Positions 16,160 through 56,925 of a DNA stretch of 64,000 nt are shown in pieces. A program made the position numbers and the translations under genes. This stretch comes from Pseudomonas phage EL, in sequence record AJ697969.1; one strand, given 5' to 3'. The notes under the pieces are model-generated. The model did no database searches. It was not told where the DNA came from and saw nothing but the letters and a program-made list of their open reading frames with translations. The first letter of the stretch is position 1; each line of letters starts with the position of its first letter.

Positions 16160-17008
16160 TTAATTCCGACGTGGTGTTGCCATCCGTATTGCTTCAATAC
16201 GGGCTTGTTTATCCGACCACGTCATGCAGTTGATCCATGTGTTCTTGAAATACTCTTTGTATTGGGTCCACGCGTCACTGTAGGCCTGTATATCGTCCCG
16301 TATGGCGTCTAGGGGAACGCCTGAGCGATAAACCGCCTCTTGGGTAGGTCGCCTACAGGTTTTGTAAATATACGCCTTAACGGCCAATTCAACGAGCTCT
16401 GCGAACTGCCGGTAATGACGAGGGTGAATACTGCTCATCCCTTCATCGTATTCCAAGATTACTTTAGCACTCATGGAATACGTTCCCGCATTTAACCCAA
16501 AGATCACAAAGCAGTTATTACCGGTCATATGGACATTGGTGAACGTGACTGGCATACTGCGGTTAGAACTCAATCCCCCCAGTAAGCCATCCATCATGTC
16601 ATTCAGTACTCCGGACCCACACATCGTGTTCTCATTCACCCCGGCTCCTAACTGACCAACTGCGGAACTCATACTCCCCAGGTAGACTTCTGTCACACTG
16701 ATGATTTTAGCACCCCGAGTCGTCGCTTCCGGTACGTTCACCTCTACACACCCATTCCCCCGATCACGAATCATGGATCCTCCCAGATCCAACAACTCCG
16801 TCTTCCCACCCCCTACGTTACATTCCGGTAGAACAATACGGTGAATCACTTTCTCCCGTATACCCTGTTCCACGGTTGTCTGGTTAACCAGGTTATACCA
16901 ATTCCCCGCATAGTTCGCATTGGGGGTTTCAAAAGCGAGCTTCAACAAGTACTCATCGATATCACTGCCACTTACGACACGATTGATAGCATGGTCTACT
17001 GGATTCAT
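16160..17008 (-). CDS. hypothetical protein (282 aa)
   Basis: ORF; its 5' end faces the 650-bp divergent noncoding region. Confidence 0.55.
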   Translation of the reverse strand: MNPVDHAINRVVSGSDIDEYLLKLAFETPNANYAGNWYNLVNQTTVEQGIREKVIHRIVLPECNVGGGKTELLDLGGSMIRDRGNGCVEVNVPEATTRGAKIISVTEVYLGSMSSAVGQLGAGVNENTMCGSGVLNDMMDGLLGGLSSNRSMPVTFTNVHMTGNNCFVIFGLNAGTYSMSAKVILEYDEGMSSIHPRHYRQFAELVELAVKAYIYKTCRRPTQEAVYRSGVPLDAIRDDIQAYSDAWTQYKEYFKNTWINCMTWSDKQARIEAIRMATPRRN

Positions 17009-17009
17009 T

Positions 17010-17658
17010 TAAGGTGACCTCGTCTAACAAACCTTAACGGGTTTATATAAACCCGTTAACTAGGATTAGGGAATCATAACATCTTCCAGTAATTCATTAT
17101 TCGGTTTCCATTATATGTTCCACTTACCCAATTCTCATTTTGGAGGAGGGGGTAAGATTCTTTAGGACTGAGCGACATGAGCCTACGGCGAGTGGAGTGA
17201 AGGAGTAAAGAATCTTGGGGGAGGAGGCCCTACCGAAGGTAGAGTCCAGAGAAGAGAAAAGAGAAAATCCGAAGGAAAAACCTATTACTCCGTAATAGCT
17301 TTTGCTCTTTATATAAGCCCCGGAGGGGCTTATAAGGCAATAAAATTTAACTTTAGTATTTATTATTATTATAGGAAATTGCTTTTTTATTTAAAAAAGG
17401 AAAAATGAAGAGGAAATGAAAATGGGAAAAATACCTTTTAAATATTCCCTAAATTTCATTTGCTATTAAAGAAGTACCCCTTTCAAAGTCAATTACCCCG
17501 ACCGGCATTCCCGAACAGGGAAGCCGGCGTATAGGGTTTATAATGCAATACTGAAATAGGGTTAATGGATTTCAGTTCTACATTATCATTGGGTAATGAA
17601 AGAATACAGTTATTCGTATTGATATGTTTTGTTAAACCCAGAAGAGGAAGAGTGTGTA
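17010..17658. promoter_or_regulatory. 650-bp divergent intergenic regulatory region with palindromes, a long-range inverted repeat, purine mirror repeats and polypurine tracts
   Basis: no convincing ORF; perfect palindromes at 17034..17059, 17283..17299 and 17311..17337; inverted repeat AAGATTCTTTA (17154..17164) / TAAAGAATCTT (17206..17216) flanked by mirror repeats GGAGGAGGGGG / GGGGGAGGAGG; polypurine runs 17248..17282 and 17393..17433. Confidence 0.4.
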
Positions 17659-18207
17659 ATGACAACGATTGCTTATCGTGACGGTGTAATGGCGGCGGAT
17701 ACTCGTGTGGTCAACGGGGCCGATATGATCAACCTCGGAGAGCAACGTAAGATCCACGAACCGGGGGAAGGAGAGTACTGGAGTGTCAATGGTGACCGTA
17801 TTATCTGTTTTGGTTTGTCGGGGAGTCTGTCGGATCTGTTGGCCTTTAAAGAACTGTTGAGTGAAGGGATTACCTTTAAGACCAAAGCACCTGACCACCT
17901 CGTTGGGGACTCGAATATGCTCTGCGTGGGTGAACAGGGTAATGTTTGGCTGGTTTCAGCATTTAAACAACGAGACGGGAGTATGGTGTTTACGGTGTCA
18001 TGCGTACAACCCCCGTTTGCAATTGGATCGGGGGGTATTTACGCCAGTTCGGTGATGGCGGTGGGTAAAAGTGCGGTGGATGCAGTTAAAGTGGCGTGTA
18101 AGTTGGATATCTTTTCTGGCGGTCGTATTGATACCTGGGAACTCCCCCCTATTCCAGAAACCCCCAGTAAGCGCCCTGAACCGGCCGCCGATAAGACGGC
18201 AAAATAA
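17659..18207 (+). CDS. HslV / proteasome beta-subunit-like Ntn-hydrolase peptidase
   Basis: MTTIAYRDGVMAADTRV (Thr directly after initiator Met, as in HslV TTIVSVRRNG...AGDGQ); FAIGSGGIYA matches the HslV AIGSGGPYA motif; GLSGSLSD ~ GFAGGTAD; RBS GAGGAAG upstream. Confidence 0.7.
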   Translation: MTTIAYRDGVMAADTRVVNGADMINLGEQRKIHEPGEGEYWSVNGDRIICFGLSGSLSDLLAFKELLSEGITFKTKAPDHLVGDSNMLCVGEQGNVWLVSAFKQRDGSMVFTVSCVQPPFAIGSGGIYASSVMAVGKSAVDAVKVACKLDIFSGGRIDTWELPPIPETPSKRPEPAADKTAK

Positions 18208-18399
18208 TCCCTAGGGGGTAAGACCCTCAGAATGTAGGCGATGGAAACTAGAGTGTGTAGGTATTTTATGCCGATGACCTGCATTCACTCCATCGCCGGT
18301 CCTGGTGGGAAGGTTAGGAGTGTTAGACACCCACCACCCCTCAACTGCCCAAGCCTATTCTGTCAGGCTTGAGAGGGTTGCCTACAAAACGCTCCGCCC

Positions 18400-18460
18400 C
18401 TCCAGCTCTATGTCACTATGATGTAGAGCTGGAGGTCTTACTTCTTTTGTTTTTTATTTA
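18400..18460 (+). terminator. rho-independent terminator (stem CCTCCAGCTCTA/TAGAGCTGGAGG plus T-rich tract)
   Basis: 12-bp stem, 12-nt loop, then TCTTACTTCTTTTGTTTTTTATTT. Confidence 0.55.
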
Positions 18461-18560
18461 CCCAGGAGGGAATATCTTATACCGTTAAAGTGACCTGTTT
18501 CCACGCCATGGTTCTCTAGGTCACTGTAAGGGTACAACGTTATTGATCCTCTTGGATGCG

Positions 18561-18617
18561 CTAACGGGTGGTGTTATGGTCATATCGGCGGTTGCCCACC
18601 CGTTAGTCTTTTTTTTG
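18561..18617 (+). terminator. rho-independent terminator (stem CTAACGGGTGG/CCACCCGTTAG plus T8 run)
   Basis: 11-bp stem then TCTTTTTTTTG; lies inside the spurious N-terminal extension of the 18543 ORF. Confidence 0.65.
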
Positions 18618-18713
18618 ATTACGCTAGATAATTTGAAACCTAAATTATTAGCAGGCTATTGGAGAATAGTCCTTTTTAATGACTTCCCTGTAAACCAAAG
18701 AGAGCGATTCGAT

Positions 18714-19676
18714 ATGTCTCAGATTCAATACTACCTCATGGGCGGCGCGGGTATCAACATTGGTGCGGGTTTGAAAGAATATTCCCGTACGCGTGTGAAC
18801 AGTGATGCGGGGATGGTAGGTTTCGATACCAGTGATAAGAACTTCACGGCCGCGTTCCCCATTGAGCAACTCGAAGGGGTGAACGGGAGTGGTAAGGATT
18901 CCACCAAGCACTATGACAAACTCCTCCCCTTCGTAGCGGCTAACCTGAAGAAACACCGTCCCGGTGTTCACAACATCATCGTAGCCAGTACCGCTGGTGG
19001 TACTGGGCGTGTTATGGCGATGATTGCGTTGCGCCTGCTGGTCGAGTCGGGTAAAAACGTCATTCTCTGCCTGATCTCGGAACACACTTCCCTGGTGGAT
19101 AAAGAAAACGCAGTCAATGCCCTCCGTTCCTTTGCTAACCAGTGCCAACCCAATCAGCTGAACCGTCCGGTGTGCTACATGGAGTTCCTCAATACGCCGA
19201 ACCTGACCCGTAAGGAAGTCAACCTTCAGGCGATTGATTCACTGAATCTCCTGAGTCTCCTCTTTGATCCCGGTAATACGGAAATCGATGAGGAAGACAT
19301 TAAACGCTTCTTCAATTACTCGGCGGGGGGTAAAACCAGGCCGGCGTTGAGTCGTATTCATTTCTACGACCAGGATGGTGCAGCGGACTATACCGGTAAG
19401 GTACCGGTCTCGGTCGCCAGCCTGTACCCGAACAACGATGACGTGGTTCCTCGGTTTATGGGATCGGTTTACCGGACGACGGGTATTTTCTCCCCCAACA
19501 GTGATCGTCCGGAGGACATCAAAGAGCTGCACGTGACCCTCGATCACGGTGAAGCCCTGGAAGAACTGGAGAAAGAGATCGAAGGGCTGGAAACGGTTCA
19601 AGCTCAAGCTGCCGTTGACTTCTCTCAACAGAAGGACATTTCGGAAGGATCGAACGATCTGGGCTTCATGCTGTAA
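18714..19676 (+). CDS. phuZ: PhuZ-like phage tubulin/FtsZ-family GTPase
   Basis: MSQIQYYLMGGAGINIGAG (tubulin/FtsZ G-box N-terminal glycine loop) and IVASTAGGTGRV (tubulin T4 signature GGGTGSG-like); size 320 aa with acidic C-terminal tail, as in PhuZ. Start at 18714 chosen downstream of the two terminators. Confidence 0.8.
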   Translation: MSQIQYYLMGGAGINIGAGLKEYSRTRVNSDAGMVGFDTSDKNFTAAFPIEQLEGVNGSGKDSTKHYDKLLPFVAANLKKHRPGVHNIIVASTAGGTGRVMAMIALRLLVESGKNVILCLISEHTSLVDKENAVNALRSFANQCQPNQLNRPVCYMEFLNTPNLTRKEVNLQAIDSLNLLSLLFDPGNTEIDEEDIKRFFNYSAGGKTRPALSRIHFYDQDGAADYTGKVPVSVASLYPNNDDVVPRFMGSVYRTTGIFSPNSDRPEDIKELHVTLDHGEALEELEKEIEGLETVQAQAAVDFSQQKDISEGSNDLGFML

Positions 19677-19692
19677 GACAGACAGTGAATCG

Positions 19693-19752
19693 CTAAGGTA
19701 GGGAGCTCACGCTCCCTACCTTAGCCTTTATTACGCTTTGGGGTATTTTTTA
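19693..19752 (+). terminator. hairpin CTAAGGTAGGGAGC/GCTCCCTACCTTAG followed by T-rich tract
   Basis: 14-bp stem, 4-nt loop, then CCTTTATTACGCTTTGGGGTATTTTTTA. Confidence 0.45.
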
Positions 19753-19814
19753 TAATGAGTTTTTACTAAAATGGGCATTATTATACAGGCTTAATTAAAT
19801 ATAGGGGTTAGAAG

Positions 19815-20108
19815 GTGTCTATAAGCTTCTCTGTTGATTTATCAAGGGGTTACCTATACCGACCTACCGGTTCAGGTAAAAACGTCGTGTTAAGGAAAAT
19901 AGACCGGTTTGACGTGGTACACTGTTTACAGGCATTAGGGTACCACAACCTGAACGAACGCAGTCTGAATCGTCGAGCTATGGTCTTTATTCCGTCTCTG
20001 GAGGAGGACATCACGAAATTCACGATCGGTGTACCGAGTGATGCACAGGTTCGTATTCGTGGGATTGGGAAGTGCTCCCAACGGTTATTGATTACATTTG
20101 TTTATTAA
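19815..20108 (+). CDS. hypothetical protein (GTG start, weak)
   Basis: ORF only; no good RBS. Confidence 0.25.
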   Translation: MSISFSVDLSRGYLYRPTGSGKNVVLRKIDRFDVVHCLQALGYHNLNERSLNRRAMVFIPSLEEDITKFTIGVPSDAQVRIRGIGKCSQRLLITFVY

Positions 20109-20122
20109 GGAGACCTTGTCCC

Positions 20123-20689
20123 ATGTTACTGTTCAATGTGAAGGAGATGGCGAATGGTATCCTCATGCCATCTGAATTGTCTCGGGTAGAACGGGAGACC
20201 ATTATTAAGGACTTGATTGAAACGGCCTTGAGTATCTTCAATAACCCTTCTTTGTGCGACGGGATCCTGGATGACCTGTTGGAGCATTATGAGTTTAACG
20301 TAGGGATACTGAATACCGACCGTATCGTTCTGGATCTCGTAAAGGTCATTAAACACACCGCCCGTAAGCTGGGGTGGGACAGTCGTTTGAAGGCGAAGGT
20401 GGAGTTCAAGCAGGTCGGGAGTGGGTATCATAAAGCCCGTATTGTAATGGATTTGGATGAAACCCTCCAAGCGTTGTCTTCGAATGTAACAGAACCGGTT
20501 CGCCTCAACGACGTTATTAGTGACCATCCAGAAGTCGAGATGCTCAATGAAATCATTTCACTACGATCTAGCAAAGCCCCAAGGAGAGTTCCGGTACTAC
20601 CAGATCGACGTCCAGTGGTTGTTAAAGGAAATCAGGAGTCAGGTTGGGTACCTGGTTACCGGGAGCATTACCGGAAAATCGGTTACTGA
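20123..20689 (+). CDS. hypothetical protein (start at MLLFNVKEM with AAGGAG RBS)
   Basis: ORF; C-terminal 50 aa are Arg/Pro-rich and overlap the next ORF in another frame. Confidence 0.4.
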   Translation: MLLFNVKEMANGILMPSELSRVERETIIKDLIETALSIFNNPSLCDGILDDLLEHYEFNVGILNTDRIVLDLVKVIKHTARKLGWDSRLKAKVEFKQVGSGYHKARIVMDLDETLQALSSNVTEPVRLNDVISDHPEVEMLNEIISLRSSKAPRRVPVLPDRRPVVVKGNQESGWVPGYREHYRKIGY

Positions 20690-25847: not shown

Positions 25848-26125
25848 GTGAGTATTTTTCCAGTGATGAACTATTATATAGCACACCACGGTCTCCCGGT
25901 TCGTCCGGGAGTCGTTGGAGTGCAATTTCGAAAATGGTATGAGTTTGAACAAGTACCTATAGCATTTCAGCCTAAAAAGCCGGAATGTGACCAAGTGCTA
26001 GAATTTTTCAAACCCATATTACCAGTGTGAATCGCCACAAGGATATTTGTGTGTGTAGGCAAACACTACGCGATTCCGCTATAGCGAAGCAAACCCTTTC
26101 TTAAGAAAACGATGGAGTTTACCCC

Positions 26126-28138
26126 ATGGCTGTGAATAAAGGTCGTTCGTCCGAATCCACCACTCCGAACTCTTCCTGGACCGATGAAGAAGCCGGCGAT
26201 AACGGTTTGAGCGCCAGCGTACGTCAAGACACCACCGGTCTGTCGGGCCTCTTCAGCCTGACCTCGATGACTTCGGACAACCGCAATATGGTGGAAGTCT
26301 CCGAAGTCGCCAAGATCCTCAAGGAACGTTTCACCCGTATCGCGGAGGCTACCACTCCGGAAGCTCAGCGCAACATCGTTCCGAACGTGGATGAAATGAC
26401 CGCCGGCATCTCCAGCATCCTCCCGGGCCTGGTACTGCACAAAGTCATCAACAACAAACTCTGGGTAATGGGTGTCCTGTTCTCCAACAAGGACCTGACC
26501 ATTTCCTCGGAGCCGATCCGTATCAACACCCTCAACGGTATCCAACAGCAAATCTCGGTGCCGCTGACCCCGACCAACTACGCCAACGAAGCGGTCATGA
26601 AGAACTTGGTGTCTTATTACACCCGTGTGGCGGAACAGCAAGGTGCGAAAGGGGTTGAAGTCATCAACATGGTCGTGGTTGACCTGGAGATGCTGAACCA
26701 CCCGGAAGCCGGCGATCCCAAGGACCGTCCGGCCAAGCTGGCGGGTTACCTCACCAACCAGTGGGAAACCGGTGTTCTGGTCCGTGCGACCATCGAGATC
26801 GCCAGCGCTGGCGTTCCGCTGCCGTCCCCGTTCGCGGATCCGAAGCATCCCTTCGGTAAAGACGGTTGTGCGGAAGCGCGGGTTACCGCTATCCAAGAAC
26901 GTGTTACCAAGGCGTTCACCCTGAGCGCTGCGAACATGGAAGTGGTGGCGGCTACCATCAGCGACCTCAACCGTAGTGGTGGTGTCTCTTCCCAGAACAA
27001 CAGCAAGGAGATCGCACGCGCTACGGCTATCGTCAGCCTGGCAGGTATCACCATGCAGGCTCACCAAGCCAACCTGGCTGCCAGCCGCGGTGCCGCTCAG
27101 CACAATGACCTGATCAATCAGTTCCTGAACCTGACCGGTGGTGTTTACCCGCACGGCTACCGTCCGCTGCACCCGGTGATCACCATGGAAACCGCGTACG
27201 CCGGTGAAATGATGAACTTCAACCAGGGTCTGTTCCCGTTCTTCTTCGGGCTGTACCTGCTGATGACCACCAACACCGACTACGTCTTCTCTGAAGCACT
27301 GCGTAAGGTGAGCGTGGGTCAACGGGGTAACCTGAGTGCACTGGAACCGCGTATCGACAGTCTGCTGGGTGGTGTGAACCCGCCGAACCGTCTGAAACTG
27401 AATGACAAAAACATCACGGATATCGATGTTGTTAACCAATGGATTCGTCAGAACGTTTCGCAACACGCGATCTTCCGTTCGAACATCGTCCTGAATGGTC
27501 CGGATTCCGCGATCAACAACTTCCTCAGCCGGCTGAGCCAGCAAAACCGTTCTAAGGAAGTGGGGATTGTGGTATCGGTGATCGATGCGATGACCAAGAA
27601 CAAGTTCTCTCAGATCATCGAGCAGAACCGTTCGGCGCGCACCGGTTGGACTCCGGAAAAACCGGTCCTGCACCGCACCCCGATCCTGGTGGTCAACGGC
27701 TTGGCTGAAGCGCCCAATGGTAAGAAACTGAATACCTTGGAAGTGGATGAAATGCTGCTGGGCCACTACAAAGGTGCGAACGGTGCCCAGGCGATGATGA
27801 ACTACCTGGCGGTCATGTACGGTGTTACCAACGAAGACCCCAAAGCCCGTTGCCAGAAGCTCAACCTGGAGCTGAACCAATCGCTGTTCAACGGCGCGGT
27901 TCACATCAACAGCTACTCGCAAGCGGCGGTCTGGGATCCGAACTTCATGGCAGCCCTGGCGCAAGCTATGGAAAGCCTGGGTAGCATGAACGCAGCGAAC
28001 TCCGCGGCCAGCTTCCGTCCGAATCAGGCTGTTTATGTGCCGGGTGCAGGTCTGGCTACTACTGCCTTTGCAGGTGGTAGTTCCCTGTCCAACCCGAACC
28101 TCATGAACGCCTTCCTGGGCGGTTTTGCGTTCGGCTGA
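26126..28138 (+). CDS. highly expressed 670-aa protein; candidate major structural protein (phage-nucleus shell/chimallin-like or capsid) - function unproven
   Basis: Strongest codon optimisation in the window (CGT/CTG/AAC/ACC/GGT/CCG almost exclusively); GGAG RBS; own strong terminator; disordered acidic N-terminus and Gly/hydrophobic C-terminal tail. The 632-aa antisense ORF is an artefact of codon bias. Confidence 0.65.
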   Translation: MAVNKGRSSESTTPNSSWTDEEAGDNGLSASVRQDTTGLSGLFSLTSMTSDNRNMVEVSEVAKILKERFTRIAEATTPEAQRNIVPNVDEMTAGISSILPGLVLHKVINNKLWVMGVLFSNKDLTISSEPIRINTLNGIQQQISVPLTPTNYANEAVMKNLVSYYTRVAEQQGAKGVEVINMVVVDLEMLNHPEAGDPKDRPAKLAGYLTNQWETGVLVRATIEIASAGVPLPSPFADPKHPFGKDGCAEARVTAIQERVTKAFTLSAANMEVVAATISDLNRSGGVSSQNNSKEIARATAIVSLAGITMQAHQANLAASRGAAQHNDLINQFLNLTGGVYPHGYRPLHPVITMETAYAGEMMNFNQGLFPFFFGLYLLMTTNTDYVFSEALRKVSVGQRGNLSALEPRIDSLLGGVNPPNRLKLNDKNITDIDVVNQWIRQNVSQHAIFRSNIVLNGPDSAINNFLSRLSQQNRSKEVGIVVSVIDAMTKNKFSQIIEQNRSARTGWTPEKPVLHRTPILVVNGLAEAPNGKKLNTLEVDEMLLGHYKGANGAQAMMNYLAVMYGVTNEDPKARCQKLNLELNQSLFNGAVHINSYSQAAVWDPNFMAALAQAMESLGSMNAANSAASFRPNQAVYVPGAGLATTAFAGGSSLSNPNLMNAFLGGFAFG

Positions 28139-28225: not shown

Positions 28226-29668
28226 ATGGAACTACCTGAACTGACTCCGAGTCTTTCGTTGGCCATTAAACGGTTAACGGAATACAGTGAAGAAGTGCTG
28301 GATCCCCTTAAGGACTTTGTCGGCTACGCCAGTAAGCTGGATTTTTCCTTGGAGGATGATCCTCGGTTCTCGATGCCGGCCTATCCCGATTTTGAAGACT
28401 ACGACTACCTGCACGATACCAGCCGTCTTAAGCAAGTCTACCTGAATGACTTCGATTTCAATCTGGAAGAAGACCGAGAAGCCCTCAGTCGTTTAACCCG
28501 GATGGAGTTTGAGGGTAATTCGTTTGATACCGTTGCGCGGTGTTTGTGTAAGGACGGCAAGGGACTCCGGGGTAACTACCTCCTGGGTACCGAACGGGTG
28601 TGTCCACGGTGTGGGAGTAAAGCAGAACTCTTCTTGGATCAAGGGGAAGACACCCGGATCTGGCTCAAATGCCCCGAAGGGGTGAAGAAGTTCGTTAATA
28701 TCGGGTTCTTTACGACCTTCTTTAACAATATCAGCATAGGAAACCCGTCCCCCAAGATCAATGTACCGCGTTACTTCATTGATCCTCTGTATCGAACCAA
28801 GGTTAAGAAGCAACGGAATGGAACCCTCATTGCCATTAACCAGATGCTCGGTGACTTGGAGATCCACCATGTCGACCTGAACACGTTCTATGATCACTGT
28901 GATCGGATCATGGAATACATTCTGGTAGGTCCAGGTGAGCGCTGGTCGAAGTACCGGGGAGGGGAAGGTGCTGAGATCCTGGAACTGTATCATCGGTATA
29001 AACACATCGCGTTCTGTAATTACATGAAGGTACCCAGTCGGTACTGCATGGTGCTGGAACGGGTGGGTAAAGAAGTCCGGAGTTATGAGCATCAGCCTGA
29101 AACAGCGAAGCTCTATAACGCCATTGCGGATACCATGAAGTCCAGCAATTGTTATCAGCTCACTGAAAAGGACTTGCAACGCAATGTGGACATTGTGGGT
29201 AAGAACCTGGTGGCGTTAGCTGATCAATTCAGGAGTGTCAATAACCCCAAAGCCGTGTTTAATAAACACGGGATCAACCGTAAGCATGTGTGCGCAGGTC
29301 CGGTGCCATTAACGGGACGGTCGGTGATTACCTCTCAAACGGGTATTATTAATCACTCTGAAGTGATTATGCCGTGGAAGATGGTCGTTACCATCCTGGA
29401 ACAACCCATTACGAACCACCTCTATCGGTTAGGGCATACCCCCCGGAGTGCCCGTAAGCTGATCTATAACGCGGCCTATCGGATCGTTCCAGAAATCGAT
29501 GCGTTCTTACGGCGTGCGGAGGAGAGTCGTAAAGTCCTGGTTCAAATGGGGCGTAACCCCTCGATTGAGTACCTCAGTCGGCGCACCAATTACCTGAGGG
29601 TGAACCGGGATCTGGAAGATGAGAGTATTAAGATCCCCATTACTTCAGTCGGTCCTTACAATGCTTAA
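28226..29668 (+). CDS. RNA polymerase beta' subunit, N-terminal part (exon 1), ending exactly at ...YNA of the NADFDGD catalytic motif
   Basis: RCLCKDGKGLRG...VCPRCGS matches the beta' N-terminal zinc ribbon (E. coli ECLCGKYKRLKHRG..ICEKCGV); C-terminal ESIKIPITSVGPYNA aligns to KAIQLHPLVCAAYNA(DFDGD). Confidence 0.65.
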   Translation: MELPELTPSLSLAIKRLTEYSEEVLDPLKDFVGYASKLDFSLEDDPRFSMPAYPDFEDYDYLHDTSRLKQVYLNDFDFNLEEDREALSRLTRMEFEGNSFDTVARCLCKDGKGLRGNYLLGTERVCPRCGSKAELFLDQGEDTRIWLKCPEGVKKFVNIGFFTTFFNNISIGNPSPKINVPRYFIDPLYRTKVKKQRNGTLIAINQMLGDLEIHHVDLNTFYDHCDRIMEYILVGPGERWSKYRGGEGAEILELYHRYKHIAFCNYMKVPSRYCMVLERVGKEVRSYEHQPETAKLYNAIADTMKSSNCYQLTEKDLQRNVDIVGKNLVALADQFRSVNNPKAVFNKHGINRKHVCAGPVPLTGRSVITSQTGIINHSEVIMPWKMVVTILEQPITNHLYRLGHTPRSARKLIYNAAYRIVPEIDAFLRRAEESRKVLVQMGRNPSIEYLSRRTNYLRVNRDLEDESIKIPITSVGPYNA

Positions 29669-31082
29669 CAATGATTACCCTATTCCTCTACCAGGAGGAA
29701 TTCGTGCAGATAGAAAGGATATACACAACTCCTATTGAACATCCAGAGGAAGTTGGGTTTTATAAACATCCAACATTGCCGATTTGGTTGTCTAAAGACG
29801 ACGATCGGATCCTCACAGAAACAGGTTTCGTGGAACCAAGCATAGGCGGCGAATACAAGTACTACATTCGTCAGCACCTCCATGTGTTGAAACTAGAGAC
29901 ATTTCTTGAGAAGCCCAGCTCAACTATCAAGTTGTGGGGGAATCACAGGGATGGCGACAAGCGCAATAATCACCTGGAAAACTTGGAGTGGTGTACTCCG
30001 TCAATGAATTTGATCCATGCGTTTAAGACCGGTCTTAGGTCGGATAACCTTCCCGGTTTACTCACCGATCTAGAAACAGGTGAGGTCAAATCATTTACGA
30101 GTTTAAGGGAATGCGCTACCTACTTAGGTATCAATCCTGGTACACTCACTGTTTACATGAAATCTGATAGAAAGTATCCGCTCAAGTTTAAGTACTCTGT
30201 GCGTCTAATATCGGAAGAGCCTAGCAAACTGACTGCTGACGACATTGGTAAAGTAAGGAAGGGTGGACCCAAACCTTGCAAGATCGTCAATAAACTCACT
30301 GGCGAAATAAAGCATCTGGCCTTTGAGAAAAGCATTCAGGAACTGTTCGGTTTATCTGAGAGACGTTATCAGCGTGCTTTGAAAGAACGTGGATACGAAG
30401 ACTGGATTTTCGAAGAAGTGAAGACGTATGAAGAATACGTCGAGTGTTTAAAGGATGATAAGGCGAAGACTGTAAAGTCTAACCGACATCTTTCTTTAGT
30501 CAAGGAAAAACAGTTGGCTACAGCTAAGAAGATTGTGGTTACTAACAATCTGACAGGCGAAATAACTGAATTCGACAATCTTAGTGACTTCTCAATGGAG
30601 AATGGTTTCATGATAAGCGAGATCAACCGCGCTTTGAAAACCAAAGATTCATGGAGAGAATTCACATTTAAATATCTGGAATAGGGTAATTGTTAAAGGC
30701 TCACCAGGCACGAAAGTCCTGGATGAGAATCTCTTTAATTGCTGGAACACCCACAAAAGTGAACCACCTTACGTAACCGTAAGGGGACGAAAGTCAGAAA
30801 CAACGGTTCACCTGTCCTACGCTAACCAATAACGCTAAGGGATACTGACAAGGGGCAACCAGCAGCGAAGCCTGTTGTTATTCAACAGGAACGTTCAACG
30901 GCCATTCGATGACCCGTAATCTGATTACGGCGAGAAGTAGGGTAGCAAGCTAATGGCACCCGAAACAGGAGACACCTAATCCCTAACCGGGAATGGTGAT
31001 GATATGGTCTGACCACGGTTTAATAGACCGTGCAGGTGTCTGTGCACACCGGGTAATGAGTAGCGTCATTACTGGACAAGTG
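29669..31082 (+). mobile_element. putative self-splicing group I intron carrying an HNH homing endonuclease ORF, inserted inside the beta' NADFDGD codons
   Basis: 5' exon ends in U (gcT); the proposed intron ends in G immediately before gat ttt gat ggt gat (DFDGD); the 3' ~400 nt (30685..31082) is non-coding and full of GNRA (GAAA) tetraloop hairpins and nested stems; HEG has divergent AT-rich codon usage. Confidence 0.5.
29671..30684 (+). CDS. HNH homing endonuclease with C-terminal NUMOD-like DNA-binding repeats
   Basis: WGNHRDGDKRNNHLENLEWCTPSMN is a classic phage HNH motif (H-N-H with invariant Asn); three helix-turn-helix-like repeats (ECATYLGINPGTLTVYM, ELFGLSERRYQRALKERG, MENGFMISEINRALKT); codon usage distinct from neighbours. 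Confidence 0.75.
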   Translation: MITLFLYQEEFVQIERIYTTPIEHPEEVGFYKHPTLPIWLSKDDDRILTETGFVEPSIGGEYKYYIRQHLHVLKLETFLEKPSSTIKLWGNHRDGDKRNNHLENLEWCTPSMNLIHAFKTGLRSDNLPGLLTDLETGEVKSFTSLRECATYLGINPGTLTVYMKSDRKYPLKFKYSVRLISEEPSKLTADDIGKVRKGGPKPCKIVNKLTGEIKHLAFEKSIQELFGLSERRYQRALKERGYEDWIFEEVKTYEEYVECLKDDKAKTVKSNRHLSLVKEKQLATAKKIVVTNNLTGEITEFDNLSDFSMENGFMISEINRALKTKDSWREFTFKYLE

Positions 31083-36025: not shown

Positions 36026-36085
36026 GAATATTTTAAACCTACATTATCTTCCCGTAATCCTGGACTATTCTGTTTGGAGTGAACC

Positions 36086-40630: not shown

Positions 40631-41044
40631 GTATTTTTACGCTTGGGTCGTATTACTACGTGCAACGGCCTGGGTCAAATGGGCCTCGTCAATTATCTTG
40701 TAACTTTGCATGCCCGCACAATCCATAAAGGGATCTTCAATCCCATTCAGATAGGCGGTGACCCACAGCATATGGTTTTCAACCCCTTGAACCCTCAGGA
40801 ACCGATAGAAGTCATACCGATAGGCATACAGTTGTGCGTGAGAGACGATTGGAATCTCCTGGGTTTGACGGAGGAGTATTTCCCGTTCGGACCGCACCAA
40901 GACTTTGAACCGTTCAGTAAAGAAGAAATCACGTCCTTCACTGAAGTTAACAATAGACAGTGGCATGGAGAAGATCCTTATCGATGCAGCTAACCATTTT
41001 TGAACCTATATTATTTCTGTGACCCGACATAAGGAATTATCCCA

Positions 41045-42187
41045 ATGGAATACTTAACGACCCAACGAAGTCGATTGTATCCCAACCTGGATACTCGTCT
41101 GGTATTAAACAAAACCATAGGGTGTTCACGTTTCATATGGAACGCTCTACTGGGTAATCATAAGGAAGAATACGGTCTTTGGGTAGAGGATCCAGAAACT
41201 CATCCTAAACCGAGTTGTTCTTTAAGTTCCTTTAATCAAAAGCTGAACGAACTTAAAGTTGAATACCCCTGGTTAAATGAGGTCAGTTCTGTTGCTTTAC
41301 AACAAACAGTTCTTCATTTAACCAAGGCTTTTAGTGAGTTCTTCCAGGGTATTCATGGTTATCCAAAATTTAAATCTAAACGAGATCCCGGTGGATTTAA
41401 CCTCAGTAGTGCAGCGGGAACTTTAGCCAAGGACGGCAAGATTCGAATCCCCAAGATAAAGGGATACACCACCTGTCGACCTAAGCTCCCGTTGGATCAG
41501 GAAATTAGGAACTACAGCATTGTCAAAGACCGGGTTGGGAATTACTTTGTCAATTGCTTAGTAACTAAACCTTGTCTACCGAATACGGCTAAAGGTCAAG
41601 GACTGGTGGGGGTTGATCTGGGGATTAAATCCTTAGCGGTGGCGAAGCGGTCTACAGGTGAAATCTTTACCTTGGAGAATCCTCGAACCTACATGAAGTA
41701 CCACCGTAGACGTGTACGACTTCAACGGCGATTAGCCAAGAAACAGAAAGGGAGTCAAAACCGTAATAAAGCTAGAATTAAACTGGCCAAACTAGAACGT
41801 AAGGTCGGCAATATTCGCAAGAACACCCTGGATACCTTCACCTCTAAACTGATTAGCGAAAACCAAGTAATCAGTATTGAGGATTTGAATGTTAAAGGGA
41901 TGCTGAAAAACAGCCGGTTGGCTAAGCATATCCAAGACTGTGGATTTAGCACCCTCCGGAGGATGTTGGAACACAAGGCTAAACGGTATGAATCACCGGT
42001 TATTATTAGCCTGGTCCATCGATTTTACCCCAGCACCCAGTGTTGTTCAGCGTGTGGTATTAAACGTGAGATCAAACTGACCCTTAATGACCGGGAATGG
42101 ACCTGCGCTGAATGCGGGACCTCTCACGACAGAGACATCAATGCTGCAACGAATATCCTGTATGAAGGACTTCGGTTAGTGGTCTGA
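41045..42187 (+). CDS. tnpB: IS200/IS605-family TnpB (OrfB) RNA-guided nuclease
   Basis: RuvC-I GVDLGIKSLAV, RuvC-II VISIEDLNVKGM, zinc finger CCSACG...CAECG, RuvC-III HDRDINAATNI; 380 aa; AT-rich codon usage unlike the flanking phage genes. Confidence 0.85.
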   Translation: MEYLTTQRSRLYPNLDTRLVLNKTIGCSRFIWNALLGNHKEEYGLWVEDPETHPKPSCSLSSFNQKLNELKVEYPWLNEVSSVALQQTVLHLTKAFSEFFQGIHGYPKFKSKRDPGGFNLSSAAGTLAKDGKIRIPKIKGYTTCRPKLPLDQEIRNYSIVKDRVGNYFVNCLVTKPCLPNTAKGQGLVGVDLGIKSLAVAKRSTGEIFTLENPRTYMKYHRRRVRLQRRLAKKQKGSQNRNKARIKLAKLERKVGNIRKNTLDTFTSKLISENQVISIEDLNVKGMLKNSRLAKHIQDCGFSTLRRMLEHKAKRYESPVIISLVHRFYPSTQCCSACGIKREIKLTLNDREWTCAECGTSHDRDINAATNILYEGLRLVV

Positions 42188-42361
42188 TAGAAAATTTACT
42201 CTTTGGAGTAACTACCGAAGCCTACTCGGGATGTTAAGCCTGTGGAGCATCAGTGCGGTTAAGCTGAGCAATGAAGCAGGAAGTTTGAGGTTAAAACATT
42301 GGGATAAAGACAGTCTTAACTCATTATTGAAAAGACTGCTGTTGACTGTAATGGAGCCGTT
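42188..42361 (+). ncRNA. candidate TnpB omega-RNA (reRNA) / IS right end
   Basis: 174-nt non-coding tail immediately 3' of tnpB with several hairpins (e.g. CAGTCTT...AAGACTG); position matches where omega-RNA scaffolds of TnpB elements lie. Boundaries not determined. Confidence 0.3.
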
Positions 42362-44668
42362 ATGAGTAAAGAAAAATTGAATCAGGACCTGAAAGGTGTA
42401 AGTAGTGAGATCCGTGCCGCACTGGGTGCAGAGGATACGGATCTTACCCCTGACAGTGCAGCGGGTCAATTCCTCCAGGAAGTCCGTTACAAGTATCCCT
42501 GCGGGGAGAATCAAATCCATCCTGCTTTAGTGGGTGTCAGCAGTAACCTGATTCTCTTCCCGCACGAAGCCTCCGCGGGTCGTCTCTATATGGCGGGTAA
42601 CATGATCCCTAAATCCGTGCCGACCGAAGGAGCGGGTGAACGGATGATGGTAACCGGGTACGAATTTGAGGAACATTACGGTGGAACGGCTCGTAAGGTC
42701 GAAGCCCCTGCGAATATGCTGGTGGAAGAGATCTTCTTCGTTCAGAGTCTGGTTCCGGGTAAGGATACGGATGACTGGAATTCGATTTACGTGGTCTTTA
42801 AGAACGACGAACAGAACGCCTACGACCTTCTGGAGCTACCTCGGTATAACACCCATAACCACTACGTTGGGTTCGAATATAAATACGATAAAGAGAAACT
42901 CCGTAAGCTCCGTAAAGGTGCCACTTTCGCTAAAGGGACCGTCTTCGCTAAGAGTCCCCGTATCAGTGAGAATGGGGAATGGTGTTTTGCAATGCCGACC
43001 TTGGTAGCCGCCTATTCGGACCAAAGGACTGAGGAGGATGGCGTGCTTATCACCCGTTCCTATGCGGAACGTTCGGCTTGTATGTTCAAGCACGAGTTCA
43101 GCTATGAATGGAATGAGGATGAATGGATTCCTCTGATGCTGTACGGAACGGACGAGAACCCCCAACCGCTCCCTGAGTCGGGTGATAACATCCGTGAGGA
43201 TGGGATCGTCATGGGCTTCCGTCGCCGCATCAAAGAGAACGCGCTGGTTTCCCTGACCAAGAAGTCCCTACGAGAACCGGATCTGGTGTACGACAAGTTG
43301 TTCTATGCGCCGGTGGATGCGGTTGTGATGTCAGTCACTGTTCGGTCGGATCGGATGAAGAACCGGTCCAATAACCGGGGAACGGATTACATCGAACAAC
43401 ACCACAATGCCATGCTGGACCGCTATGAGAAACGCCAGAATGAAATGTGGAACAATGTGATCCGGTGGTACGAAGGGAAGATCGCTGCCAACCGCGGGGA
43501 AGACATTCCCATTACCTTTGACCTCGATACCTTCATTCGGAACGCGTATGGTAACTATACCCGCAATGGGTTGGGTCGTATTAACCCGTTGGCCCGAGTG
43601 GAACGGTGGGATAAACTGAAAGATTGGAACGTGACCATCGAACTGAAGGAACGGGTCAAAGGTCGTGTTAAATTCAAGTACGCGGGTTTGAACGGTGACA
43701 AAGGGGTGTGTGTACGGGTCATTGAAGACGACGAAGCTCCCACCTATCCGGATGGGACTCGGGCGGAGTTCATTAAAGATAACGTACCGGCGTTCCGTCG
43801 CCAGATCTTTTCGTTGCTCATGGAACTGAGTATCAACTATGTGAACATGAACGTTCAACGGGAAGTCAGACACCTACGGCTACAAGGGGATTATGAAGGC
43901 GCTTTCCAGGCGTTGATGACGTTCTATGAAACCGGTTTCCCTGAATTCAGTGAATTGGTTGCTCATGCGTTGGTTACGGAGGAGGAGAAACGTGAGCACG
44001 TCGACGATGTCTGTCGCCGGAAGATTTCCGTGCATGTGGTCAGTAACACGAAGTTGTATGGCGTGAACCTGATCAACGCCCTGCGTCGTCAATACCCGTA
44101 TAAGCCGCAGAAAGCCATTATCGTGAACGCACTGGGAGAACGGGTGGAAACCGAGAACCCTATCCTTATCAGCTGTCAGGACATTATGCTCCTGGATAAG
44201 TTTGGTACGGACATGAGTGCGCAGAGTATGCCGAAGGCTAACCTCTTTGGTATGCCAGCGAAGATGAACGAAGGCAGTAAATACGCCACCCCCATGAAAG
44301 ACAGTAATAACAAGAATACCGGTGAAACCGAAGGCCGGTTGCAAGTCAGTCACGCGGGCGGGCAGGAAATGATCAAGCAACTGGCTCTGGCGTATTCCCC
44401 CGAGAACCAGAAAAAAGCCTCCCAACGGGTTATTCGTGCGGATGATCCGTTTGAGATTCCTCGGTTGATTAAACCGGAGGAGTATTTGGGGAATCGGGCG
44501 TTGAAAATGGCGGTGGGAATGTTGTCGGATTCGGGTTATCGGCTGCGAGCTGAACTACCCAGTGATCGTCGGGAATATCCAACCTTTAACATGGATGAAA
44601 TCCCAGGGTTAGATGACGAGACCTTGAAGCAGCTTCAGTCATCCGAGAAACCCACTCAAGAACCTTAA
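42362..44668 (+). CDS. multisubunit RNA polymerase beta subunit, C-terminal half (separate polypeptide)
   Basis: [27 protein letters not shown] ~ [39 protein letters not shown] ~ [30 protein letters not shown] ~ FGGQRFGEMEVWALEAYGA. Confidence 0.7.
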   Translation: [768 protein letters not shown]

Positions 44669-44707: not shown

Positions 44708-47700
44708 ATGGTAATGAAGATCAAACTCCGTGAATGGGCTAATTTACCAGAAGAAACTGTTCTCCGTTGGTTAAACACCCGCCGGTGGGTGGAGGTCACG
44801 GATGACCTGGACCAAGTCGCTCTAACGGATACCTACGCTCTGATCATTACCTGGCATGGAATGATCATCCACCGGCATTATAACGATGTCCCCTATTCCA
44901 TTAAGGAGATGGTACCCAGTAACAAGGTGGAAGGGGGTGAAGACACCGTCTATAACGATGGAACCAACGCGACGCCTATTAACCAGTTCTTAAAGGTCAT
45001 TCTTCCTACGATTATTGACCCGGTGGAAGTGGACGGGATTAAACGGCTTATTCATATCTGGCAGAATAAGCTGAATAACCTGCTGGTGGTGATGAGTGAA
45101 CGTTACGTTATTTCAGCCACCGCTGAATCCGTAGCGGAGTTCATGGAAGATGAAGGGATCTCTGGAATACGGGACCGTGTCCTGAGCAAGGAGATTTCAA
45201 TTGATGAGGGTGAGCGGGAGTTTGCGGATTATGTCCGGACCGCTCATTCCATTGCCAACAACACCCTCACCCTGCTGTCGCGTACGGGCGGGGTGGCCAT
45301 TAACCAGGCGTATCAGAAGACGATCATCCGGGGTAAAGTCTTTGACCTGAACAACTCGATCATGCCGAATGCGATTACGGTTCCGTATGCGCATGGGATT
45401 ACCAACCTGGCTGATATGCTGGGTGAACGGAATGCAGCAGGTAAAGCCGGGGTTTTGTCTTCAAAGATAAAAATCCCTGGTGGATGGAAGACCATGGGTA
45501 ACATCCGGGTGGGTGATGAAGTCGTTACACCCGATGGAGGTACCGCTAAGGTGCTGGCAGTTCACCCACAAGGTGTAACCAAGGTTGTACGGGTGCACTT
45601 CAAAGACGGTCGATATACTGACGTTAGTCCAGATCACCTGTGGAAGGTTAGACGTCATCATTGGTGCAACGATAAAGCCATGGCTAAACTCACTCGGGAG
45701 GAAGTGGAAGAACGTGTATGGCGAGTCATCACCACCAATGAGTTGAAAGACTATATTGGTCTGTCAACTAAGGTATACGTCCAACTGATTGAACCTGAAA
45801 GAAATGCCGATAAACCCTTCAAAATTCACCCGTATGTGCTCGGTGTCTTGTTGGGGGATGGATGCATTAGTCAAAAGGCTGTGGATATCACCAAACCTTA
45901 TCAACAGCTATTCGATAAGGTCCAATCGCTATTGCCAGAACATTTGGAATGTGTTTGGCGACCCAACCGTAAAGGTGATGGAGAACCTAAAACGTTTGGG
46001 ATCCGTTTTAAAGATCGTCGGTCCGAACAGCACATCAACTGGCATATCCGTGATGGCCTGAAGGAACTGGGCTTGTATGGAATGCGGTCGTGGGGAAAAG
46101 TCATTCCCGAAGAATATCTTCACGGATCGGCTAAACAACGTTTGGAGCTCCTCCAAGGACTGTTGGACACAGACGGAACTGTGGACAAACACAAATCGGT
46201 TAGCTTTAGCTCTTCGTCTAAGTTACTCTCCCTCGGAGTGCAATACTTGGTCAGAAGCCTAGGGGGGATGGCACGTCTCCAAGAACGTACTCCCCACTAC
46301 ACCCACAATGGAGAAAAAAGGGAAGGTCGTACGGACTATCGGGTTTATATCCGATACCCTCGACCAGAAGAACTCTTCACCCTAGACCACAAACGGGAAC
46401 GTGCGGTCTCGCACCAGCATACGGAAACCCTGAGACTGCAAGTAACTCATATTGAAGAACGTCCTGATGAGGAGACACAATGCATTACGATCGATCATCC
46501 TGATCATCTGTACATTACAGACGACTTCATTGTCACCCACAACAGCCTAACCAATAACGGCAAGGCCCTGAAATCATCGGAATGGTTCCACCGGAAGGTA
46601 CACATCCTGTCCGCTGTGGTGGCGGATATCGATCATTTCATGGACTGTGGAACGACCACTACAGTGCCGATCCGAATTCCCAATATGCAAGCGGCAATGG
46701 CACTGTTGGGTAAATTCAGGGTAACCGATACAGGAGAATTAGAACTCATTGATCAAACCACGGTGTGGTCAATTAAGCCAGGGGAGTGGGTTAATATTCG
46801 TAGTGTGGCCTTCTGTAATCACTACAATAGTGCTTCACCCTGCCGGGTATGCTACGGGATGATGGCGAGCTCTATCCCGTATAACGTGATGATGAAGAAA
46901 GGGGCTGATGTCGGGATGTGGTGTACCACCTCGATCTGTAACCCCATCGGCCAGGGAATGCTCTCCACCAAGCATTTCATTAGGAATGCAACGACCCGTA
47001 AGTTCGTTCCTGCGACTAAGGATAAGAACGTTATCTATTCCAATGGTGACGATATTTTCCTGACTAAGGAACTCTGTGCACCGGGCACTGAATTGGTGCT
47101 CAAAGCCGATATTGTAAACATCCTCTCGGATATCCGTTCCTTGGATGTTCTGGACAACTTGAGCCTGGATAAACTCCCGTACTTCTCTGAAGTCACATTC
47201 CGCTATGAAGTCGAAGACATCATGATGGGGGGTAAAACCCTCCAGCAGCATGCGGCTTGTACCTCGGTGTCGTCTCGGAATGCCCGGTTCTCGTTGGAGT
47301 TCCTGAACTATCTCCTGAGTAAAGGTTGGGCGAACGAAGGTAAGAAACATATTACCGTTGATTTGAGTGAATGGAATACGCTCAGTCCTATCTTCACACT
47401 GCCGTATGTTCGTGAAGACTTGGACATGCACCGGGCTCGGGTAGAGAACTTCATCACGTTCAATAAACGCAATAACGCCTGGAGACAGCAGATCGTTACA
47501 CCCCGTCTCTTTGGTGAGGTCTTAGCGGAATACTGGGGATTGATCAACCAGGAAACGAAAGGGATTAACATCATCCATCCTGAGGTCTTGCTCTATTCCA
47601 CGTTGTGTCGGGATCCCATGCGCGGGGATTATTCCCTGGCGAATGGTAAAGGACCTAAGTATTTCGTGAACTTCCAGGAGTGTATCAAAGGCAGGGGGGC

Positions 47701-47818
47701 GGGTATGCTCATGATCTACGAGAACCAGCAAAATGTGCTAAGTGATCCTAAGACATTCCGTGTGGTAAACCGTCAGGGGAGTCCGCTGGAGTGCTTCTTT
47801 AGCTTAGCGGTGAGTTGA
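44708..47818 (+). CDS. multisubunit RNA polymerase beta' subunit, C-terminal part, interrupted by an intein in the bridge helix
   Basis: after in-silico splicing, [28 protein letters not shown] ~ [28 protein letters not shown] (bridge helix); [21 protein letters not shown] ~ [45 protein letters not shown] ~ [25 protein letters not shown] (trigger loop). Confidence 0.75.
   Translation: [1036 protein letters not shown]
45446..46543 (+). mobile_element. intein with full LAGLIDADG homing endonuclease, inserted after GK in the beta' bridge helix
   Basis: starts [17 protein letters not shown] (Ala1), Hint block [39 protein letters not shown] motifs [13 protein letters not shown] and [12 protein letters not shown], ends [12 protein letters not shown] with +1 Ser. 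Confidence 0.7.
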
Positions 47819-51510: not shown

Positions 51511-51564
51511 TACTACCTCCCTTCCGCAAGGAAGGGAGGTAGTAGTCGTTTATTTATTTATTTC
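51511..51564 (+). terminator. rho-independent terminator (TACTACCTCCCTTCC/GGAAGGGAGGTAGTA plus T-rich run) between convergent genes
   Basis: 15-bp stem, GCAA loop, then GTCGTTTATTTATTTATTTC. Confidence 0.55.
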
Positions 51565-56884: not shown

Positions 56885-56925
56885 GGTAACCTGGGGGCCT
56901 AGAGCCCCCAGGTTATCTTATGACA
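56885..56925 (+). terminator. hairpin GGTAACCTGGGGGC/GCCCCCAGGTTATC with weak T-tract
   Basis: inverted repeat right after stop of 56503..56877. Confidence 0.35.

Follow-up and report, generated by a model that had tools for sequence, protein, structure and literature searches.

A PhuZ-family tubulin gene of an EL-like Pseudomonas jumbo phage and a possible conserved non-coding module upstream of it

The gene at positions 18714..19676 (plus strand) of the 64,000-nucleotide stretch of Pseudomonas phage EL analyzed here (AJ697969.1; the whole stretch is referred to as the window) encodes a phage tubulin, and its membership in the PhuZ family is confirmed by sequence family and by predicted fold. 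Very probably, this is the PhuZ tubulin of an EL-like (Elvirus, Chimalliviridae) jumbo phage of Pseudomonas aeruginosa, expressed as a monocistronic early unit. The PhuZ identity of the gene is already known, and it is publicly annotated in near-identical phages. The only possible novelty is a conserved non-coding module that lies upstream of phuZ and consists of two elements, which we refer to as A and B.

The reading frame starts with ATG at 18714, its stop codon ends at 19676, and the product is 320 amino acids long. An earlier note on this DNA had placed the gene at these coordinates and had called the product a PhuZ-like tubulin, citing a T1 glycine loop, a T4 signature, and an acidic C-terminal tail; all three are present. 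The T1 loop LMGGAGINIGAG occupies residues 8-19, with the core GGAGIN at residues 10-15, and the T4 signature ASTAGGTGRV occupies residues 90-99, with AGGTGR at residues 94-99. Among 25 homologs, G10, G11, G13, I14, and N15 of the T1 loop, G95, G96, and G98 of the T4 loop, and the catalytic aspartate of the T7 loop, D195, are invariant; D192 is a further T7 aspartate. When the proteins are aligned jointly, the T1 and T4 loops and the T7 aspartates match those of PhuZ from phage 201phi2-1 (PhuZ-201) and of phiKZ gp39: D195 aligns with D190 of PhuZ-201 and corresponds to D204 of the phiKZ protein. The D190A version of PhuZ-201 is a catalytically dead mutant that forms non-dynamic filaments (PMC4244570). 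The last 20 residues of the window protein contain four aspartates or glutamates and one lysine or arginine (net charge -3, compared with -4 for the last 20 printed residues of PhuZ-201), and the net charge of the last 45 residues is -10. In the AlphaFold2 model, a long C-terminal helix (residues 279-304) is followed by a tail of lower confidence (pLDDT 61-74), in which Gly317 is conserved and the acidic cluster is weaker than in PhuZ-201. The C-terminal tail of PhuZ reportedly makes contacts with neighboring subunits.

The PHROGs database assigns the protein over its full length to phrog_4733, termed tubulin PhuZ (E = 1.5e-99). When the single window sequence was searched against PDB sequences with phmmer, it matched PhuZ of Escherichia coli phage Goslar (9pm9, 4.8e-18) and phiKZ gp39 (3zbp, 4.1e-11); PhuZ-201 was not matched in this search and was detected by the family profile only. 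This profile, A1, was built from the 25 PhuZ homologs and also served as the input for the AlphaFold2 model. It matches all solved PhuZ structures in PDB (9pm9 at 3e-28, 3zbp at 2e-27, and the PhuZ-201 entries 3j5v, 3rb8, and 3r4v at approximately 4e-22, down to 5e-22), whereas TubZ is matched at just 0.0019. The AlphaFold2 model is confident (pLDDT 87, pTM 0.86), and it predicts the two-domain tubulin/FtsZ fold with an N-terminal GTPase domain and a C-terminal activation domain. The top five PDB matches of this model in Foldseek are all PhuZ proteins, from Goslar, phiKZ, and 201phi2-1 (E values from 1e-20 to 1e-23, TM scores of 0.74-0.84), followed by TubZ (5e-11) and then by FtsZ (approximately 1e-10), with a Foldseek probability of 1.00 for PhuZ, TubZ, and FtsZ alike. 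The earlier note had named the lack of a predicted tubulin/FtsZ fold, or T1 and T4 loops that fail to align, as findings that would speak against its proposal; the fold is predicted confidently, its nearest structures are PhuZ with TubZ far behind, and the loops align.

These comparisons also bear on the possibility that the protein is the TubZ of a type III partition system (TubZ/TubR/tubC) that segregates a plasmid or prophage, and not PhuZ. On the one hand, TubZ of Clostridium phage c-st is the next structural class in the Foldseek search (TM scores of 0.63-0.67), the Pfam match is to a model named TubZ_C_2, and some homolog records are labeled "chain A monomeric subunit of TubZ". On the other hand, PhuZ structures score better than TubZ by at least 10 orders of magnitude both by fold and by profile, Pfam itself describes TubZ_C_2 as "Phage tubulin-like protein, C-terminal domain", and the gene resides in a jumbo phage genome, with a chimallin gene 6.4 kb away. 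Nor is a TubR-like partner evident in the open reading frame at 19815..20108, which has no PHROG match, or in the 506 nucleotides upstream of the gene, which are non-coding, although no TubR-specific search was made. We consider the partition-system explanation exceedingly improbable and treat the protein as PhuZ below.

The PhuZ proteins of 201phi2-1 (gp59; PDB 3R4V, 3RB8, and 3J5V) and phiKZ (gp39; 3ZBP and 3ZBQ) share with the window protein the fold (TM scores of 0.74-0.84), the length class (315-333 amino acids), a T1 loop of the form GGxGxN, a T4 loop of the form GG(T/S)G, a long C-terminal helix, and an acidic tail that ends in a conserved glycine. Their source is likewise a chimallin-encoding Pseudomonas jumbo phage. 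However, sequence identity to these proteins is just 16-22% in the Foldseek alignments, the T4 loop of the window protein reads AGGTGR instead of GGGSGS, and the strongly acidic segment IIDADDNVDEDG of PhuZ-201 is replaced by DISEGSNDLG. In phiKZ, moreover, PhuZ begins only 50 nucleotides after gp38, without an upstream spacer or any of the elements described below. Goslar PhuZ (9PM9), among solved structures the best match both in sequence (phmmer) and in structure (Foldseek, 7.6e-23, TM score of 0.81), is approximately 20% identical, and the last ~15 residues fall outside the alignment. When the protein is compared with PhuZ proteins annotated in Elvirus-type phages, nothing of substance differs: between the window and MIZ-Pa99, the difference amounts to 0.8% in this region and to a TnpB insertion that the window carries at a distance of 22 kb.

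With Pseudomonas phage MIZ-Pa99, the window is co-linear at 99.2% identity, with the same coordinates. Six P. aeruginosa phages of ~210 kb (HHBS47_1, HHBS8_1, phiRU, IR-QUMS-PaBa1, GXNNE2, and GXNNA8) show 97-98% identity, and vB_PQ1, a 184-kb record, shows 99.1% identity over 78% of the query; the genomes of these close relatives range from 184 to 212 kb. The PhuZ protein is found at the same genomic position in all eight records with 98.4-100% identity (100% in MIZ-Pa99, GXNNE2, and GXNNA8), and four of the eight (MIZ-Pa99, HHBS8_1, HHBS47_1, and vB_PQ1) label it "tubulin PhuZ"; in MIZ-Pa99 it is XRX11484.1, with the coding sequence at 18714..19676. The next named PhuZ clade, that of Erwinia phages RisingSun and Joad, shares 45% identity with it. 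HHBS8_1 and HHBS47_1 belong to Elvirus (PMC12141865), which the NCBI taxonomy places in Chimalliviridae.

The earlier note had taken the tubulin, together with split multisubunit RNA polymerase (RNAP) genes, as the mark of a nucleus-forming phage of the Chimalliviridae type and had suggested a search for chimallin in the remainder of the genome. A homolog of chimallin (ChmA), the nuclear shell protein, is already present inside the window, at 26126..28138 on the plus strand (phrog_4795, "nuclear shell protein", E = 1.3e-167, residues 13-670), and the corresponding gene of MIZ-Pa99 is annotated as "nuclear shell protein". Four genes match PHROGs for beta-type subunits of split multisubunit RNAPs: 28226..29668 (plus strand; phrog_2987, E = 2.4e-131), 42362..44668 (plus strand; phrog_3295, E = 7.2e-244), 44708..47818 (plus strand; phrog_3015, E = 4.1e-212, with an intein-like insert), and 51558..52859 (minus strand; phrog_2962, E = 3.2e-144). 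Together, chimallin, the split RNAP genes, and the Elvirus relatives support the view that the window represents a segment of a nucleus-forming Chimalliviridae phage. We found no tRNA or tmRNA genes in the window. The taxonomy line of the MIZ-Pa99 record (PV472050.1) reads Pantevenvirales; Straboviridae. This label looks like a deposition error, given that chimallin, PhuZ, and split RNAPs are all encoded in this genome and that the phages close to it are classed as Elvirus (Chimalliviridae).

Most likely, phuZ is its own early transcription unit, with a predicted start near 18650-18660, a leader of approximately 60 nucleotides, and an end at 19692..19725. The earlier note had argued that the gene should have its own promoter, and a predicted one is indeed found: the EL-type early promoter motif ATTTGAAACCTAAATTATT at 18631..18649 (plus strand), which lies between the second of two upstream hairpins and the start codon and ends 64 nucleotides before the ATG. 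It agrees at 17 of 19 positions with the predicted EL early promoter consensus WTTTYAAACCTACATTATY, which is given together with that of phiKZ, TATATTAC, in a table of the phage N1M2 paper (PMC7058600, Table 2). With up to three mismatches allowed, the EL motif has five matches in the window compared with 0.09 expected, all of them intergenic and on the plus strand; the other four are located before the HslV-like gene (17569..17587), before chimallin (26005..26023), before a gene at 36086 (motif at 36030), and at 40997..41015. An equivalent block of the form CTA(T/A/C)AT(T/C)A(C/T) is found 71-99 nucleotides upstream of PhuZ in nearly all relatives examined. Early promoters of jumbo phages are AT-rich motifs of ~10 nucleotides near position -10 that are recognized by the virion RNAP (PMC7598289), and phiKZ chimallin carries both an early and a middle promoter (PMC8244752). 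A scan for sigma-70 promoters gave nothing relevant, as expected for a phage with its own RNA polymerases.

Three hairpins around the gene fit the form of intrinsic terminators, in that each combines a stable GC-containing stem with a U-run and has a fold z-score between -4.6 and -6.5. Hairpin 1 (18399..18435) has 17 bp and a folding energy of -29.3 kcal/mol (z = -6.5) and is followed by a T-rich tail that extends to 18455; hairpin 2 (18560..18607) reaches -32.4 kcal/mol over an 81-nucleotide stretch (z = -4.6), with a T8 run downstream of it at 18610..18617. The third hairpin (19692..19725, plus strand), located directly after the PhuZ stop codon, has 15 bp (z = -5.8) and a T-rich tail, and its equivalent in relative locus L005 (4987..5016) carries compensatory changes. 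A generic terminator scan of the window found three terminators where shuffled sequences gave 2.7, that is, no enrichment; the case for the hairpins therefore rests on their fold z-scores and on their conservation in relatives. We infer promoter activity, expression timing, and termination by the phage RNA polymerases.

Judging from its PhuZ homologs in phages 201phi2-1, phiKZ, PhiPA3, Goslar, and RAY, the protein would bind GTP through its T1 and T4 loops and polymerize head to tail, with the T7 aspartate D195 of one subunit activating GTP hydrolysis in the next, while the long C-terminal helix and the acidic tail would reach across to neighboring subunits. Such filaments would be dynamic; they would bring capsids to the phage nucleus, which is bounded by chimallin, and would position or rotate it. 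The gene would be transcribed from the promoter at 18631..18649 as a monocistronic unit that comprises the leader, the coding sequence, and the terminator at 19692..19725, and it would be an early gene like chimallin, with the same type of promoter. Polymerization and the spindle function are what we infer by analogy with relatives that have been studied, where the chimallin shell is centered and rotated by PhuZ filaments, which also transport capsids to it (PMC12908238).

Several points weigh against this account. The two Pfam matches, to TubZ_C_2 (9e-5) and Tubulin (0.0089), are both under the gathering scores; Pfam alone is equivocal and cannot settle the family, and the assignment required PHROGs together with the profile search against PDB and the fold search. 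The T4 loop is noncanonical, AGGTGR in place of GGGTGS, with alanine as its first residue instead of glycine. The promoter motif has two mismatches to the EL consensus, and the consensus is itself a bioinformatic prediction. PhuZ of the phiKZ type forms three-stranded filaments and a bipolar spindle, PhuZ of RAY forms five-stranded tubes, and the organization in Goslar is different again (PMC10299810); because filament architecture differs between PhuZ clades, what the EL-clade protein builds cannot be deduced from its relatives. PhuZ is also dispensable, and it is absent from a third of chimallin-encoding phages (PMC10299810, PMC12908238). Finally, the literature that we searched contained no experimental work on PhuZ of EL-like phages.

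The spacer between the HslV-like gene and phuZ (18208..18713) is 506 nucleotides long and non-coding, with no conserved open reading frame. We fetched approximately 30 relative loci (designated by L numbers) via PhuZ homologs, and the spacer aligns in blocks with those of metagenomic relatives whose PhuZ proteins are 53-67% identical to that of the window. The blocks recur in a fixed order: a GGTTAGG-type block, 140-165 nucleotides, a first T-run, approximately 20 nucleotides, a TAT-N-TTATAC block, approximately 150 nucleotides, a second T-run, the early promoter, and PhuZ. This layout accommodates two elements: element A (18306..18455, plus strand), which ends in hairpin 1, and element B (18473..18617, plus strand), which ends in hairpin 2 and T8. 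The earlier note had described tandem terminators at 18400..18460 and 18561..18617. Both hairpins are real, but they are not merely a redundant pair, as each closes a conserved non-coding element. Elements A and B are kept upstream of PhuZ even in relatives where PhuZ identity is only 33-67%. The gene on the other side of the spacer varies among relatives, and in L032-L034 its place is taken by an apparent tRNA cluster; the elements therefore accompany phuZ rather than the HslV-like gene. In the window, the latter (17659..18207, plus strand) encodes a homolog of HslV-family peptidases (phrog_1040, 5.9e-39, no Pfam match) and has its own EL-type early promoter at 17569..17587. In L032..L034 and L036, tRNA-like 3' ends (e.g., GGTTCGATTCC...CCACC) are seen approximately 450-560 nucleotides upstream of PhuZ, directly upstream of the element A homolog, which thus lies at the edge of an apparent tRNA cluster in these loci.

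Element A, identified by a covariance model, covariation, and its fold z-score (-4.9), comprises the block AAGGTTAGGAG on the 5' side, a helix P1 with long-range pairing (GGAGTGTT / AACGCTCC), inner helices, the terminal hairpin at 18399..18435, and a U-rich tail. In P1, a 5' strand of the GGAGG type is paired with a 3' strand of the CCTCC type that is preceded by an A-run. A covariance model, R1, was built from seven EL-like sequences and finds exactly one copy in the window. In the close group, to which both the training sequences and the untrained L021 belong, the matches of the model upstream of PhuZ have E values of 1e-26 to 1e-32; in three distant subgroups they are 0.002-0.03, at positions that had been picked beforehand by eye. 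The model finds nothing in the phiKZ-like loci L039-L063 or in the PhuZ region of phiKZ. In the model-guided alignment, 91% of cells are paired compared with 75% in shuffles, double changes occur at 18 of 26 pairs, a value that none of 500 shuffles reached, and the covariation score is 0.478 compared with at most 0.145 in slid registers; these values come from an alignment fitted to the model and from related sequences. The terminal hairpin holds 14 of the 26 counted pairs. Outside the terminator stem, helices P1 and P2 are paired in 93% and 90% of cases, with double changes at 7 of 12 pairs. When MAFFT and RNAalifold were applied across all subgroups, only the terminator stem of element A was recovered; the informative sources were the subgroup alignments and the covariance model. 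A swap control for P1 was discarded as support: it discriminated weakly (5.7 bp for matched strands, 4.7 bp for swapped ones), and its anchor, the A-run, was misplaced in some subgroups. Taken together, the comparative data lend moderate support to element A as a conserved structured element.

Element B, recognized by a conserved block, its layout in relatives, and its fold z-score (-5.5), opens with a conserved block, TATCTTATACC. This block is predicted to supply the 5' strand of a long hairpin, the loop of which, CACGCCATGGTTCTC, is conserved too. The hairpin was formed in 17 of 19 relatives in single-sequence folds, and both the TATNTTATAC block and the layout are found again in relatives. 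Covariation within subgroups is weak for this first hairpin (one or two double changes), and MAFFT with RNAalifold across all subgroups yielded no informative structure for element B. In L005, the element is cut to approximately 70 nucleotides, so that most of it is lost, while PhuZ and the early promoter are kept. Sequence comparison thus weakly supports element B as a conserved non-coding element.

A search of positions 17000..20500 against Rfam (E values up to 1) gave nothing for elements A and B; the one match, to FinP, was below threshold, lies on the minus strand across the 3' terminator hairpin, and was taken as chance. None of the named phage records has an RNA annotation in the spacer. 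The MIZ-Pa99 record (PV472050.1) has three tiny "hypothetical protein" coding sequences (18240..18371, 18377..18487, and 18542..18631) that cover elements A and B and the terminators; they are probably over-calls and are not conserved as proteins in relatives. At the 5' sides of A and B lie TAT-N-TTAT(G/A) blocks that are similar to the TATG core found in late promoters of phiKZ (PMC7598289). We considered a second promoter class made up of TATNTTATACC and TATNTTATR blocks and rejected it, with four matches in the window compared with 2.8 expected for the former and three compared with 2.75 for the latter; because they are not enriched, the TAT-N-TTAT(G/A) blocks are not called promoters here. 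The sole other exact TATNTTATR match in the window, TATCTTATG at 56914..56922, lies approximately 60 nucleotides before an ATG at 56980 and shares sequence with the 3' end of a hairpin rich in GC, AACCTGGGGGC...GCCCCCAGGTT (region 56887..56922). This arrangement, with the hairpin first and the motif second, is reminiscent of terminator 1 and the motif with which element B begins. It could be a sign of a second class of promoters, a suggestion that is statistically unsupported.

What might the two elements be? Tentatively, and with less than even confidence, we suggest that A and B are two undescribed, independently terminated small RNAs that are linked to the 5' side of phuZ across a large sub-clade of Chimalliviridae, comprising EL-like phages together with environmental lineages related to them, in which PhuZ identity falls to as low as approximately 33%, and that are absent from phiKZ-like phages. 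In P1, a Shine-Dalgarno-like 5' strand, UAGGAGG, pairs with an anti-Shine-Dalgarno-like 3' strand, ACCUCC; this pairing invites the speculation that the RNAs influence translation, or else conditional read-through into phuZ.

Another explanation, which we regard as rather unlikely, makes no call on separate RNAs: the hairpins would be a fail-safe terminator pair for the HslV-like gene, and the blocks would be promoter or terminator signals or stabilizers of the 3' untranslated region. The HslV-like gene does have its own early promoter, and there is no gene between it and hairpin 1; compensatory changes are to be expected in terminator hairpins anyway, and more than half of the counted element A pairs are in the terminal one; covariation in element B is weak; and the absence of enrichment of the TAT-N-TTAT(G/A) blocks fits this explanation as well. 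However, A and B travel with PhuZ while their upstream neighbor differs, the double changes in P1 and P2 are in helices that are not part of a terminator, and the unpaired segments AGGTTAGG and GTTGCCTAMAAAA and the element B loop CCATGGTTC stay conserved in relatives with 33-67% PhuZ identity, a distance at which intergenic DNA normally cannot be aligned.

Alternatively, the two elements could be a cis-acting leader: later in infection, PhuZ would also be transcribed from a promoter located upstream of A or B, and hairpins 1 and 2 would be attenuator-type conditional terminators that control the amount of read-through to PhuZ. There is precedent in phiKZ, where 34 of 42 terminators in 5' untranslated regions (5'UTRs) yield either a short RNA of less than 250 nucleotides or read-through into the gene (PMC10914365) and where chimallin is served by two promoters. 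The sequences TATTTTATG (18262) and TATCTTATA (18473) include, or are similar to, the TATG core seen in late promoters of phiKZ, and the linkage of the elements to PhuZ is conserved. On the other hand, the number of TAT-N-TTAT(G/A) blocks in the window is that expected by chance, both hairpins are very stable and have long T-runs, features that point to efficient termination and not to a conditional one, and L005 has kept PhuZ and its early promoter after losing most of element B. We consider a leader of this kind quite improbable.

The suggestion of two small RNAs has its closest parallel in the short, terminator-ended 5'UTR RNAs that are recognized in phiKZ transcription (PMC10914365). Like those of phiKZ and other Pseudomonas phages, which were found by ONT-cappable-seq, A and B are short (approximately 140-200 nucleotides), structured, terminator-ended, located upstream of a gene, and conserved among relatives. 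In contrast to those candidates, A and B are known from sequence alone; their conservation reaches far beyond the genus, to relatives with 33-67% PhuZ identity, while comparisons of the published candidates stayed within genera, at more than 90% DNA identity; and they have no counterpart in the phiKZ PhuZ region or in Rfam. One phiKZ candidate, 5'UTR_gp40/p40 (PMC10914365), was considered as a counterpart since gp40 follows PhuZ in that phage, and it was ruled out: the gaps around phiKZ PhuZ are only 50 and 54 nucleotides long, and model R1 finds nothing there.

Elsewhere in the window, an IS605-family TnpB element of approximately 1.26 kb (41017..42276, with the TnpB reading frame at 41045..42187) matches the Pfam models OrfB_IS605 (1.3e-22), Cas12f1-like_TNB (1.5e-20), and HTH_OrfB_IS605. 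It is present in phiRU and IR-QUMS-PaBa1, whereas the site is empty in MIZ-Pa99, GXNNE2, GXNNA8, vB_PQ1, HHBS8_1, and HHBS47_1. It is inserted directly after the early motif at 40997..41015 and before the beta-type RNAP gene that starts with ATG at 42362, and it would therefore be transcribed from a phage early promoter; the non-coding tail of ~90 nucleotides after the TnpB stop codon could be a guide RNA. The product of 44708..47818 has 1,036 amino acids, of which residues 2-1034 align on the 653-position profile of phrog_3015. An insert of approximately 390 amino acids (approximately residues 230-620) matches intein-containing families of terminases, primases, and helicases, and the Pfam domains LAGLIDADG_3 and Hom_end are detected at residues 466-539; judging by these matches, the subunit of the phage RNA polymerase appears to be interrupted by an intein that carries a homing endonuclease. 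In MIZ-Pa99, this region is annotated as two overlapping coding sequences. An HNH endonuclease gene with a NUMOD1 domain (29671..30684, plus strand) starts 3 nucleotides after the beta-type RNAP gene at 28226..29668 and probably encodes a free-standing homing endonuclease beside the split RNAP gene.

PhuZ, a well-studied protein of Chimalliviridae, thus proved to be a correct marker of the origin of the window from a nucleus-forming phage. As filament architecture varies between PhuZ clades, the EL-clade protein is also a reasonable point of comparison. Elements A and B, if transcribed, would be new members of the 5'UTR short-RNA kind, notable mainly for their deep conservation and their constant linkage to phuZ; they would then represent a deeply conserved pair of phage non-coding RNAs tied to a cytoskeletal gene.

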